From the NCBI RefSeq assembly GCF_003334815.1, contig NZ_QOWO01000012.1: a DNA stretch of 64,000 nucleotides, one strand, 5' to 3'. Positions 26,286 to 29,171 of the stretch are shown here, piece after piece. This DNA comes from Escherichia coli. Lineage in GTDB: Bacteria > Pseudomonadota > Gammaproteobacteria > Enterobacterales > Enterobacteriaceae. The first letter of the stretch is position 1, and each line of letters opens with the position of its first letter. The notes under the pieces were generated by a model that was not told where the DNA came from, did no database searches, and saw only the letters and a program-made list of their open reading frames with translations. The position numbers were made by a program, and so were the translations under genes.

Positions 26286-27275
26286 CTACTCTTCTTCGTT
26301 CCCGCCCTCTTCATACGGGCCAAATGGCTTCGCGGGCAGAACGATATACGTGCCTTCAAACACTGCACCCGGCGTCTCGTCGCCAAAGATTTCGACCTGC
26401 ATCTGCACCCGTGCTTTTCGTCCGCGCGCCAGACGGTCGAGATCGCCGCTTAAGGCACCGAGGTCGGCTACCGCATGAGGTTTACCGCTAATCGGCTTGC
26501 TGTAGCGGATATGCGCATCCGCAAGAATAATCGTTCCGCCGAGGTGGCGTTCACGCAGCATCAGCCAGATAAGTCCCCAACCGGTGAGCGTCGCCAGTGA
26601 GAATAAACTCCCGGCAAACAGCGTATGGTGCGGATTCTGATTGCCGGTTTCTGGCATGGTAGTGATAAATTTTTGCCCGGTATATTGCTGAATGCGCACG
26701 CCCATTTTTTCACTAAGCGGGATATGTTCGTACCACGCCTGTTGCAGCTGCGCGCACCAGTCGCCGCGATGCAGAATGTCATCCAGAGTGGCGACGGGCT
26801 TAATCATCAAAAAATGGCGAATCGGCGTGGTGGTTGGCGTGGTGATTTCTCCCTGATTAACAAACCCCAGCTTGGCGAAAAACTCCACCGCGTCTTCACG
26901 GGCGCTACAGGTCACGCGCTTAACGCCTTCCTGACGCGCCACCGACTCCAGGGTCATCGCCATCAGCGTGCCTAACCCTTTGTCCTGCACGTCGGGATGA
27001 ACGGCCATAAAGCGAATGGACGCTTCATTGTCGGCATTAATATACAGTCGGCCTACCGCCACCAGATTACCCTGCTCGTCGACGACCATCTGGTGATGCG
27101 CCATCGCATCCCACGCGTCGCGTTCCGAACCTTTTGGTTGATGCAGGGGCTTACGCAACATTTCCCAGCGAAACTGATAGTAACGCTCTAATTCTTCTTC
27201 TGTTTGTGGAACCCGAAGGTGATACATAGCGATACTCTCTCTTGTTTCCCGTGACAACCCTGGAAGCTGGCTCAT
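26286..27275 (-). CDS. yiiD: YiiD: N-terminal GNAT acetyltransferase fused to a C-terminal thioesterase-like domain
   Basis: 329-aa ORF; GNAT acetyl-CoA motif region ([18 protein letters not shown]) in the N-half; recognised as YiiD. Confidence 0.85.
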
Positions 27276-27709
27276 ACCTGCAACCAGAATGTCACGGGGC
27301 CATCATTGACCAGCGATACCTGCATATCCGCAGCGAAGCGTCCTGTTTGCGTGTTCATCTCTTGCTGACGGCAGCGTTCGACGAAATAGTCATATAACGC
27401 CTCTGCGCGATCCGGTGATGCACCTTTGGAGAAACTTGGGCGCATCCCCCGTTCGGTATCTGCGGCGAGGGTAAACTGGGAAACCACCAGCACACTGCCG
27501 CCCGCCTGTTGCACGTTGAGATTCATCTTGCCTTCGGCATCGCTAAAGATGCGGTAGCCGAGCACACGCTCGCACAGACGGTTTGCTTTCTGTTCGTCGT
27601 CATCCTTTTCGACACCCAATAACACCAAAAGTCCCGCGCCAATTTCGCCCGTCACTTCTCCCTCCACGGTGACGCTGGCACGGGTTACGCGTTGAATTAA
27701 TGCAATCAT
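27272..27709 (-). CDS. dtd: D-aminoacyl-tRNA deacylase Dtd
   Basis: 145-aa [22 protein letters not shown]... with the SQFTL motif; stop overlaps the yiiD start (ATGA). Confidence 0.95.
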
Positions 27710-28578
27710 GGTTCGTCGTCTTCTTCTTGTTCAGCTGCTTGTTTTAGTTTGCGGTATTCCCCGAGAGTGACAGTAATTTCCGCGCCAAGCAAGACGATAC
27801 ACCATGTCCAGTAGACCCAAACAAAGAGAATGGGGATCACCGCCAGCACACCATAAATGAGCTGATATGACGGGAACATGGTGATATAAAGCGCGAAACC
27901 TTTCTTTCCTGCTTCGAACAGGAGTGCGGCGACAAACGCGCCGACAATCGCGTCGCGGTTAGGTACGCGGATGGTAGGAACAATGCTGTACAGCAACCAG
28001 AAGGAGATCCACGACAACAGCAACGGAAAAATACGCAGCACGTTGTCGATGACAGTATTGAGATCGCTCGCCCAGCGCAGGGAGAGCAAATAGGAACTGA
28101 TCGCCAGACTGGCCCCTGCCAGCAGCGGCCCCAGCGTTAAAATCATCCAGTACACGGCGAACGAGTAAATTTTTGGTCGCGCTCGTTTACTGCGCCAGAT
28201 GGTATTCAACGCGCTATCGATGGAGTACATCAACAATAACGCGGTGACGATCAGCCCGCACGCCCCAACGGCGGTCATCTTGTTGGAATTGGCAACAAAT
28301 TGTTCGATATACCGCTGAATAACATCGCCAGTAGCAGGCAGAAAGTTGGCAAAAATAAAGTGACGTAACTGAATGCTGACGTCGGAAAACATGGGAAAAG
28401 CGGCGAAAAGCGCAAAAACAACGGCAACCAGCGGCACTAATGAGAGCAACGACACATAGGCAAGGTTACCTGCCAGGGTTGTCATGTTGTCCTCATCAAT
28501 GCGTTGCCAGAGTAGTTTTAGCCAGGCCCATAGTGGACGGGTACGGTGCCTGGCTTTGTCCTGAATGGTTTTTAGCAT
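27706..28578 (-). CDS. yihY: Inner-membrane protein YihY (BrkB family; formerly annotated rbn)
   Basis: 290-aa polytopic membrane ORF recognised as YihY; stop overlaps the dtd start. Confidence 0.9.
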
Positions 28579-29171
28579 AACACCTTCGCGAAATAGTCCG
28601 GGATGGTGGTTTTATCTTTCACCAGAATACTGGTAATGCCCAGCTGATTGGCTCCTTCTATATTATCGGCGTTATCGTCGAAAAAGACCGTATCGCTGGG
28701 TGAAAAACCTTCCGCCTGCAAAACATGCTGGTAAATTCGTGCTTCAGGTTTGCGCATCCCCAGATCTTGCGACAGATAGATATGGTCAGCAGCATCACGA
28801 ATTTCCGGGTATTCTTCCGGCCAGAAGGTGGTATGCAGGCGGTTGGTATTGGAAAGCACCACCACGCGATGCCCCTGCTCACGCAGTTTATGCATGATGG
28901 CGATCACTTCCGGGCGCAGCGCAACAAACACCGCCTGCCAGCCGTGAGAGAACTGCTCGTAGCTTAGCGGTAGAGCCATCTCATGACACAGCGCCTCTGC
29001 GAACGCTTCGTCGCTAATTTCCCCACGCTCATGCTGATGAAACGCCTCCCCCATATGAAAACTCTTCTTAAGCGATGCCAGCGGAATACGCGTTAAATCG
29101 CTCCAGGCTCCCAGCACACGGTTAAAGTCGATATCGACAATCACATTACCTAAATCAAAGATATAGAGCAT
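28572..29171 (-). CDS. yihX: HAD-family alpha-D-glucose-1-phosphate phosphatase YihX
   Basis: ORF 28572..29192; ATG at 29171 ([16 protein letters not shown]..., HAD motif I DxG) with AGGAGG SD; 199 aa. Confidence 0.9.

Follow-up and report, generated by a model that had tools for sequence, protein, structure and literature searches.

The yihX-yihY-dtd-fabY genes of Escherichia coli: a compact but ordinary core operon with a probable spacer in front of fabY

The genes yihX, yihY, dtd and yiiD lie next to each other in Escherichia coli K-12, where they are presumably b3885-b3888. As yihXY-dtd-yiiD they appear among the transcription units drawn from RegulonDB (PMC4421995). The protein YiiD of E. 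coli was identified as FabY/MadA, a malonyl-ACP decarboxylase acting via its hot-dog C-terminal domain, and Mad proteins were found mainly in Proteobacteria (Whaley et al. 2021, PMC8666670). The activity demonstrated for MadA/FabY is the decarboxylation of malonyl-ACP to acetyl-ACP (Sanyal et al. 2019; Whaley et al. 2021). A further publication, citing earlier work, gives a 100-fold reduction in decarboxylase activity for variants at position 214 and a 10-fold reduction for those at position 216 (PMC13353551). It also reports, citing Sanyal 2019, that the expression of yiiD rises in the stringent response.

The DNA analysed here is a stretch of 64,000 nucleotides from E. coli, referred to as the window. 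The initial annotation had placed four co-directional genes at positions 26286-29171, and direct reading confirmed yihX, yihY, dtd and yiiD as minus-strand open reading frames. The genes, their order, their orientation and the junction sequences are the same as in K-12; the sole discrepancy is the annotated start of fabY (329 aa versus 313 aa). E. coli chromosomes were 100% identical to the query stretch over 3401 nt. It was matched in all of the complete genomes searched (5426/5426), with at least 80% query coverage in 5422. Genome contigs were searched with a broad MadA alignment in order to reach distant taxa. The best 80 matches, all from Enterobacterales, were used for the junction statistics and gave 76 usable loci, and the four-gene order was kept in 74 of them. 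A scan of the whole window with Rfam at gathering thresholds gave no match within 26286-29171, so that known riboswitches, leaders and sRNAs are absent from the chain. The yihX-yihY-dtd-fabY (yiiD) chain is an E. coli core operon that is already catalogued, compact but ordinary. As an account of the locus as a whole, a core operon of mixed housekeeping genes is the best explanation, with a probability of roughly 0.8.

The identity of the four products is well supported by protein families. YihX (199 aa, 28572..29171, minus strand), a HAD-family glucose-1-phosphatase, matches the NCBIfam equivalog NF006991 (HAD-IA) over residues 1-199 of 199 with 405.8 bits (cut-off 295), in agreement with RefSeq. 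The BrkB-family inner-membrane protein YihY (290 aa, 27706..28578, minus strand) matches NF002457 at full length with 477.1 bits (cut-off 307) and TIGR00765 with 353.1 bits (cut-off 73). The D-aminoacyl-tRNA deacylase Dtd (145 aa, 27272..27709, minus strand) scores 256.5 bits against TIGR00256 (cut-off 101.5; 1-145 of 146). As for YiiD, the annotated open reading frame of 329 aa extends over 26286-27275 (minus strand) from the first in-frame ATG, and its numbering is the one used in the literature. In this numbering, Pfam places a GNAT domain (PF00583) at residues 31-138 (E = 8.6e-16) and YiiD_C (PF09500) at 174-313 (E = 3.6e-50); TIGR02447 gives 164 bits, and PDB entry 1T82 matches residues 169-314 (E = 2.8e-30). 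Across 20 aligned sequences, Asn214 never varies, and the conservation of His216 is 90% or more. The protein therefore has the same GNAT plus YiiD_C hot-dog architecture and the same Asn214 and His216 as MadA/FabY, and it is the protein characterised (Sanyal et al. 2019; Whaley et al. 2021). The initial annotation had described YiiD as a GNAT-thioesterase fusion suited to acyl transfer. Both domains are borne out by Pfam, but the C-terminal one is the published malonyl-ACP decarboxylase and not a thioesterase or acyl-transfer module. A link of YiiD to fatty-acid synthesis, which had been suggested with hesitation, is correct (PMC8666670).

Overlaps of 7, 4 and 4 nt had been proposed between the consecutive genes, and the first two stand. 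Direct reading gives a 7-nt overlap of the yihX stop and the yihY start (ATGCTAA, 28572-28578, minus strand) and a 4-nt overlap of the yihY stop and the dtd start (ATGA, 27706-27709, minus strand). Among the 76 usable loci from the best 80 matches, the 7-nt yihX/yihY overlap is found in 50 and a 4-nt one in 10 more, and the ATGA at yihY/dtd is retained in 71. Both overlaps are genuine and have been conserved within Enterobacteriaceae. Overlaps are also commonplace locally: within the surrounding 50 kb, 34 pairs of neighbouring genes run in the same direction and 7 of these overlap, and the overlaps of the four-gene chain do not exceed chance expectation for an E. coli operon. Elsewhere in the window, fdoGHI-fdhE and rhaBAD, for instance, likewise have ATGA-type 4-nt overlaps between consecutive genes. 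In contrast to the yihX-yihY-dtd-fabY products, which have no known common pathway, those of fdoGHI-fdhE and rhaBAD belong to one pathway or complex.

Translation of yihX would start from a strong Shine-Dalgarno sequence, AAGGAGG (29177..29183, minus strand), with an anti-Shine-Dalgarno duplex energy of -11.6 kcal/mol. Because of this sequence, the ATG at 29171 is favoured over the GTG at 29192 as the start of yihX. The yihX sequence is by far the strongest among the four genes; the corresponding values are -3.9 kcal/mol for yihY, -1.9 kcal/mol for dtd and -5.1 kcal/mol for fabY at Met17. The weak sites of yihY and dtd relative to yihX are suggestive of coupled re-initiation, with which they are compatible. 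As both starts fall where the gene before them stops, yihY and dtd would probably be translated largely by re-initiating ribosomes. The overlaps had been taken to imply a single transcript as well. They are better regarded as compaction that makes coupling plausible; a single transcript is not proven by them, and internal promoters are still compatible with them.

Upstream of yihX, a promoter-like block was recognised by its conservation (29200..29232, minus strand). It comprises a -35-like TAGCCA (29230-29225), a 17-nt spacer and a -10-like TACAGT (29207-29202) with an A+T-rich stretch after it; the conserved core is CTTTCCCGCTACAGTTA at 29216-29200. When 75 distinct upstream sequences from Enterobacterales (from the best 80 matches) are aligned, the block is kept whatever the upstream neighbour. 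It matches the consensus at only 8 of 12 positions, which is why it was missed by a scan with a threshold of 9 of 12. A sigma-32-type reading of the block was rejected, as the spacing from the TCAAA-like element to CCCGCTAC is only ~10 nt. The block is a candidate promoter, and transcription would probably begin at this conserved sigma-70-like element ~30-60 nt upstream of yihX. At the other end, a G+C-rich hairpin of 10 bp (26256..26279, minus strand) begins 7 nt past the fabY stop and is the likely end of the unit. The 71-nt stretch containing it (26225-26295) has a folding energy of -27.2 kcal/mol (z = -2.6 versus shuffles), with no canonical U-tract after it. The transcript would probably end there, a reading drawn from the predicted fold. 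In the scan for promoters and terminators, 3 promoter-like and 2 terminator-like sites turned up, fewer than the shuffled means of 5.1 and 4.6. Between the genes, none exceeded the shuffled expectation. The only terminator-like site on the minus strand (26901-26888) was dismissed, since it lies inside fabY and has a 5-bp stem.

The third junction is where the comparison departs from the original picture of a fully overlapping chain. The 4-nt ATGA shared by the dtd stop and the Met1 ATG of yiiD (27272-27275, minus strand) exists only with the 329-aa start. If it were used, all three overlaps would be genuine and the whole chain translationally coupled. This is a distinctly improbable reading, although the ATGA junction is present in the sequence and the published residue numbers N214 and H216 follow the 329-aa form and agree with the alignment. 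Moreover, among the loci from the best 80 matches, the 48 with a 44-nt spacer all keep the 16-codon extension open, 45 of them with an ATG, so some initiation at Met1 may occur. However, RefSeq/PGAP starts fabY at Met17, the second ATG at 27227, which gives a protein of 313 aa (26286..27227, minus strand). Most of the homologues found have 313 aa or fewer, and in all distant homologues with both domains the first residue aligns with Met17. The sequence from 27228 to 27271 (minus strand), which the 329-aa annotation counts as codons 2-16, has no codon-phase signature: column entropies by codon phase are 0.64/0.65/0.75, whereas dtd has 0.21/0.10/0.98 and fabY 0.15/0.09/0.79. The amino-acid identity of the extension is 61% versus 93% for the next 30 residues. 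Across the Enterobacterales loci from the best 80 matches, the distance from dtd to Met17 varies from 32 to 104 nt, and the ATG overlapping the dtd stop is out of frame or missing in several genera. In Cedecea, Buttiauxella, Yersinia, Chimaeribacter and others, spacers of 37, 42, 45, 46, 73 or 75 nt or in-frame stops interrupt the extension. The Shine-Dalgarno-like match is also better before Met17 (-5.1 kcal/mol, 5 nt spacing) than before Met1 (-3.4 kcal/mol, 0 nt spacing). The motif AGAGAGAG (27242-27235, minus strand), 7 nt upstream of the Met17 ATG, is invariant; the AGAGAG motif and ATGTATCA are invariant in the spacer of the loci from the best 80 matches, though its length and frame vary by genus. 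Most likely, fabY has a start of its own at Met17, preceded by a non-coding spacer of 44 nt, in which the conserved AGAGAG would act as a ribosome-binding-like site. Coupling at the dtd/yiiD junction relies on Met1, a start that the RefSeq annotation, the distant homologues, the spacer variation and the phase entropy speak against. The same spacer bears on an alternative in which the contiguous genes are expressed largely from internal promoters, such as a stringent-response fabY promoter inside dtd, and do not form one regulatory unit. Its conserved non-coding sequence 5' of fabY, the reported rise of yiiD in the stringent response (Sanyal 2019, via PMC13353551) and the own promoter of Xanthomonas madB (PMC12093956) would all fit such an arrangement, and the stringent-response rise could come from the yihX promoter or from an internal one. 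Nevertheless, the alternative is unlikely. No promoter-like match was found on the coding strand inside the chain at the threshold of 9 of 12, the only strongly conserved non-coding block is the one upstream of yihX, and the genes are listed as one transcription unit (PMC4421995). The A+T-rich sequence past the -10-like hexamer of yihX may itself explain an activation by ppGpp.

Whether the products belong together is a separate matter. They have distinct jobs: YihX is a sugar-phosphate phosphatase and YihY a membrane protein, while Dtd acts in D-aminoacyl-tRNA proofreading and FabY in malonyl-ACP decarboxylation, by which fatty-acid synthesis can start independently of FabH. The most fitting view of the cluster is a mixed housekeeping operon that descent and co-expression have kept together, rather than a single pathway. 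That its functional logic is not obvious, as the initial annotation remarked, still holds; it is unexplained, yet typical of mixed housekeeping operons. Another possibility is that BrkB, Dtd and Mad form a functional module serving one process, for which their co-transcription was selected. Its task could be envelope/lipid homeostasis, or dealing with D-amino acids or with acyl groups that carriers release, and YihY would be the component in the membrane. The gene contexts speak for it in part, as the neighbourhood has persisted in four or more orders of Gammaproteobacteria, is retained where flanking genes differ and follows the decarboxylase domain even without GNAT; YihY and the GNAT domain of MadA are both without an assigned function. 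Even so, a module is very improbable. The tRNA proofreading by Dtd is unrelated to the initiation of fatty-acid synthesis, and Mad is not a general partner of Dtd, because it occurs mainly in Proteobacteria (PMC8666670). In Xanthomonas, madB sits with glt/secB/gpd instead of dtd and is transcribed alone (PMC12093956). The neighbourhood is also broken in places: yihY is lost from the chain in Mangrovibacter (L048, L069), MadA and Dtd are ~6 kb apart in Catenovulum/Marinifaba, and an opposite-strand gene separates dtd from madA in Aeromonas and on one further contig (L092). Literature searches on the operon logic or on the function of YihY returned only gene lists, with no paper linking these genes; a biochemical function of the YihY/BrkB family was not found in the literature searched.

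In contrast to the four-gene chain, the BrkB-Dtd-Mad part of the mixed operon extends beyond Enterobacterales. Distant gene contexts were taken one by one, and for two contigs of insufficient length to include neighbouring genes (L089, L090), longer cluster members were used instead. In these individual look-ups, BrkB/Dtd/Mad neighbourhoods were found in Vibrio, Moritella, Aeromonas, Shewanella, Ferrimonas and further gammaproteobacterial contigs. Conservation of the order thus reaches far beyond close relatives, the opposite of what the initial annotation had named as a refutation. The MadB-type loci of Shewanella (L094) and Ferrimonas (L095) have the same order of BrkB, Dtd and Mad on one strand near glnA-typA, but their Mad is without GNAT, YihX is absent and the stop/start overlaps differ. 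An alpha/beta-hydrolase lies between BrkB and Dtd in the Shewanella locus. The neighbourhood thus tracks the decarboxylase domain. The idea that the GNAT domain serves as a D-amino-acid N-acetyltransferase partner of Dtd lost its support, since the adjacency to Dtd holds for GNAT-less MadB. The ancestral arrangement common to Enterobacterales, Vibrionales, Alteromonadales and Aeromonadales was probably BrkB-(hydrolase)-Dtd-Mad beside glnA-typA. Judging from these contexts, YihX is an Enterobacterales addition, and its arrival and the tight overlaps would represent a later, lineage-specific compaction. The neighbourhood outlasted rearrangements that moved recG/spoT away. Such persistence is more than one might expect from drift alone, and a functional link would be compatible with it.

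As a discovery, the operon is of little matter: databases and literature already contain it, its genes and what YiiD does biochemically. The modest addition of the analysis is the persistence of BrkB-Dtd-Mad in Vibrio, Shewanella, Ferrimonas, Moritella and Aeromonas. The widely used 329-aa numbering of YiiD/MadA probably includes 16 untranslated codons, and the dtd/fabY junction should therefore be treated as a 44-nt spacer and not as a coupled overlap. The conserved block upstream of yihX could, as a concrete promoter candidate, underlie the induction of yiiD reported for the stringent response. It is a long shot that the trio, kept over Enterobacterales, Vibrionales, Alteromonadales and partly Aeromonadales, is a real unit tying YihY to fatty-acid initiation and/or Dtd-type quality control. 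If it were one, the neighbourhood would be the first handle on the function of YihY. The BrkB-Dtd-Mad synteny, old within Gammaproteobacteria, is a cheap lead on this orphan membrane protein.

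The four genes yihX (28572-29171), yihY (27706-28578), dtd (27272-27709) and yiiD (26286-27275 when read from its first in-frame ATG, Met1) are consecutive, co-directional ORFs on the minus strand, as confirmed by ORF listing and strand reading. RefSeq names them yihX, yihY, dtd and fabY, with csqR (yihW) upstream and yiiE downstream. The DNA of the chain matches E. coli chromosomes at 100% identity. None of the 5,426 complete E. coli genomes searched lacks a match, and query coverage reaches at least 80% in 5,422 of them. The chain is a core chromosomal locus of E. coli. The longest ORF of yihX opens 21 nt earlier than annotated, at a GTG rather than an ATG (29172-29192, minus strand). 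This start was dropped because the strong Shine-Dalgarno sequence AAGGAGG falls within the extension and the family profile alignment begins at the ATG at 29171, which is therefore the true start. Elsewhere in the window, the Rfam matches are all known E. coli features. At 53435-53688, 54717-54835, 46399-46506, 44441-44509, 19484-19542, 1321-1398, 10243-10405 and 51114-51191, they comprise CsrC, Spot 42, ES222 (glnA-typA intergenic region), STnc370 (overlapping the typA 3' end), a SECIS element within the gene for the formate dehydrogenase alpha subunit (RefSeq: fdnG), and four repeats of the naRNA4/REP type.

Full-length NCBIfam equivalogs identify YihX as glucose-1-phosphatase (405.8 bits, cut-off 295), YihY as a BrkB family protein (477.1 bits, cut-off 307) and Dtd as D-aminoacyl-tRNA deacylase (256.5 bits, cut-off 101.5). 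YiiD matches the NCBIfam yiiD_Cterm domain, and the two-domain architecture proposed in the initial annotation was recovered by Pfam, with GNAT (PF00583) at residues 31-138 and YiiD_C (PF09500) at residues 174-313. Its nearest solved structure is 1T82, that of the Shewanella protein to which Whaley et al. (PMC8666670) refer. YiiD is FabY/MadA, whose hot-dog domain decarboxylates malonyl-ACP to acetyl-ACP and permits FabH-independent initiation of fatty-acid synthesis, an activity for which the GNAT domain is not needed (PMC8666670). The suggested link of YiiD to fatty-acid synthesis is therefore correct, and the thioesterase label once given to the C-terminal domain is superseded. For Salmonella on succinate, a 2026 study ties lag-phase cAMP levels to FabY/MadA, probably via the GNAT domain (PMC13353551).

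Direct reading of the junctions, with coordinates re-checked, gave a 7-nt overlap at yihX/yihY (ATGCTAA) and 4-nt overlaps (ATGA) at yihY/dtd and dtd/yiiD. The first two are solid: of 76 Enterobacterales loci, 50 have a -7 and 10 a -4 overlap at yihX/yihY, and 71 retain the ATGA of yihY/dtd. The Shine-Dalgarno sequence is strong at yihX (-11.6 kcal/mol), with no strong one at yihY (-3.9 kcal/mol) or dtd (-1.9 kcal/mol), a pattern that would fit re-initiation coupling. Such overlaps are not unusual locally. Within the 50 kb that surrounds the chain, 34 pairs of adjacent genes are co-directional and 7 of these overlap, including fdhE/fdoI, fdoI/fdoH, rhaA/rhaB and the frv genes.

The third overlap, also claimed at the outset, hangs on Met1, and several lines of evidence disfavour that start. 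In RefSeq, fabY begins with the second ATG (Met17, 27227), so that the product has 313 aa and 44 nt separate the gene from dtd. In a search of 5.8 billion proteins, YiiD homologues were mostly no longer than 313 aa and covered the query from residue 17. Exhaustive phmmer searching found that residue 1-3 of every full-length two-domain relative (34-50% identity) aligns to query residue 17-24; a 20-sequence homologue alignment agrees, the distant relatives beginning around Met17. Between the dtd stop and the conserved ATGTATCA start lie 44 nt in 48/76 and 59 nt in 12/76 Enterobacterales loci, and 32, 37, 42, 45, 46, 47, 73, 75 or 104 nt in the remainder. In several deviant spacers the dtd-overlapping ATG is out of frame or absent, or stop codons are brought in, and an AGAGAG motif 7-10 nt upstream of Met17 is invariant across the 76 loci. 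Column entropy by codon phase, measured in the 48 loci with a 44-nt spacer, is 0.21/0.10/0.98 at the dtd 3' end, 0.15/0.09/0.79 in fabY from Met17 and flat (0.64/0.65/0.75) in the supposed 16-codon extension, where pairwise amino-acid identity is 61% versus 93% in the next 30 residues. Met17 is probably the conserved functional start and Met1 probably not a real one, so that the dtd/fabY overlap would depend on annotation and the junction is probably best described as a short non-coding spacer. Since the extension is open in all 48 of these loci, occasional initiation at Met1 is possible. Translational coupling at this junction is unlikely.

A consensus promoter/terminator scan within the chain found nothing above shuffled expectation. 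Upstream of yihX, alignment of 75 distinct Enterobacterales sequences revealed a sharply conserved block about 25 nt before the Shine-Dalgarno sequence (consensus ..TAGTCAAA..CTTTCCCGCTACAGTTA..), conserved although the upstream gene varies between genera. Here, TAGCCA, 17 nt and TACAGT followed by A+T-rich sequence (29230-29202, minus strand) form a plausible candidate sigma-70 promoter, with 8/12 consensus matches, just below the scanner threshold. In all Enterobacterales examined, CTTTCCCGCTACAGTTA is preceded by TAGYCAAA (29200-29232, minus strand); because part of the block falls in the would-be promoter spacer, the block may serve not only as a sigma-70 promoter but also as a site bound by a regulator. 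During the stringent response yiiD is reportedly expressed more strongly (Sanyal 2019, cited in PMC13353551), and activation by ppGpp would be consistent with the A+T-rich sequence that follows the -10-like element. The yihXY-dtd-yiiD genes are among the four-gene operons analysed with RegulonDB transcription units (PMC4421995). Just beyond the fabY stop lies a G+C-rich hairpin of 10 bp (26279-26256, minus strand). Between this putative terminator hairpin and yiiE, about 0.8 kb (25461-26285) is A+T-rich (GC 0.32-0.36 vs ~0.53 in the operon), holds only a truncated hypothetical pseudogene (~25810-25926) in RefSeq, and may be what is left of DNA gained by horizontal transfer.

Of the 76 usable loci, which come from Enterobacteriaceae, Erwiniaceae and Yersiniaceae, 74 have the order yihX-yihY-dtd-fabY. 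The sole breaks are two Mangrovibacter loci (L048 and L069, positions ~6900-8000), where yihX directly precedes dtd with a gap of ~54 nt and no yihY. Related orders extend beyond close relatives: BrkB-Dtd-MadA in Vibrio (L084), alpha/beta-hydrolase-Dtd-MadA in Moritella (L085), typA...BrkB-hydrolase-Dtd-MadA (L093), BrkB-hydrolase-hypothetical-Dtd-MadB in Shewanella (L094) and glnA-typA...BrkB-Dtd-MadB in Ferrimonas (L095). An opposite-strand methyltransferase separates Dtd from MadA in Aeromonas (L091, Dtd-methyltransferase-MadA) and in L092 (BrkB-hydrolase-DUF2750-Dtd-methyltransferase-MadA), BrkB-Dtd is divergent from MadA in L088, and in Catenovulum/Marinifaba (L087) MadA stands alone with Dtd ~6 kb away. 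In Xanthomonas, madB is located elsewhere and transcribed alone (PMC12093956). Since MadB in Shewanella and Ferrimonas lacks GNAT, adjacency tracks the decarboxylase domain rather than the GNAT domain. Among the loci compared, YihX belongs to the chain only in Enterobacterales; in several other lineages Dtd is preceded by a Pip-like alpha/beta-hydrolase, which separates it from BrkB in those that have BrkB. Conservation of these specific stop/start overlaps does not extend beyond Enterobacteriaceae and Erwiniaceae.

The flanks differ as well. Only ~0.3-2 kb separates glnA-typA from the yihX/yihY cluster downstream of it in Yersinia (L002/L003) and Ferrimonas. The distance from typA to yihX is ~15 kb in E. 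coli (29270-44277, yihL to csqR), and the intervening yihLMN, ompL and sulfoquinovose catabolism genes (yihO to csqR) appear to have been inserted into the ancestral order. A short way downstream of mad, recG is encoded on the other strand, directly beside mad in Moritella and with one gene between the two in Aeromonas and Ferrimonas. Moritella and Ferrimonas have recG followed by a SpoU-family methylase (trmH-like) and a RelA/SpoT homologue. E. coli fabY is not adjacent to this neighbourhood, and the downstream side was therefore rearranged while BrkB-Dtd-Mad stayed together.

The best-supported reading is that of an ordinary mixed housekeeping operon. The operon, domains and synteny of the initial interpretation stand (PMC4421995 listing, Pfam, 74/76 loci and distant taxa), without its thioesterase label and its coupling at dtd/fabY. 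The chain would go back to a BrkB-(hydrolase)-Dtd-Mad neighbourhood that adjoined glnA-typA in an ancestor, and would have been compacted in the enteric lineage. A shared pathway for the products is not supported: the established tRNA proofreading role of Dtd is unrelated to fatty-acid initiation, Mad occurs mainly in Proteobacteria (PMC8666670), and chains exist in which yihY is lost, opposite-strand genes are inserted, or dtd and mad are separated. That the trio stayed together when rearrangement parted recG/spoT from mad in E. coli leaves some room for a real functional link, but such a link is quite improbable. The housekeeping operon itself is already known; a functional link, if true, would matter chiefly as a clue to the uncharacterised YihY.
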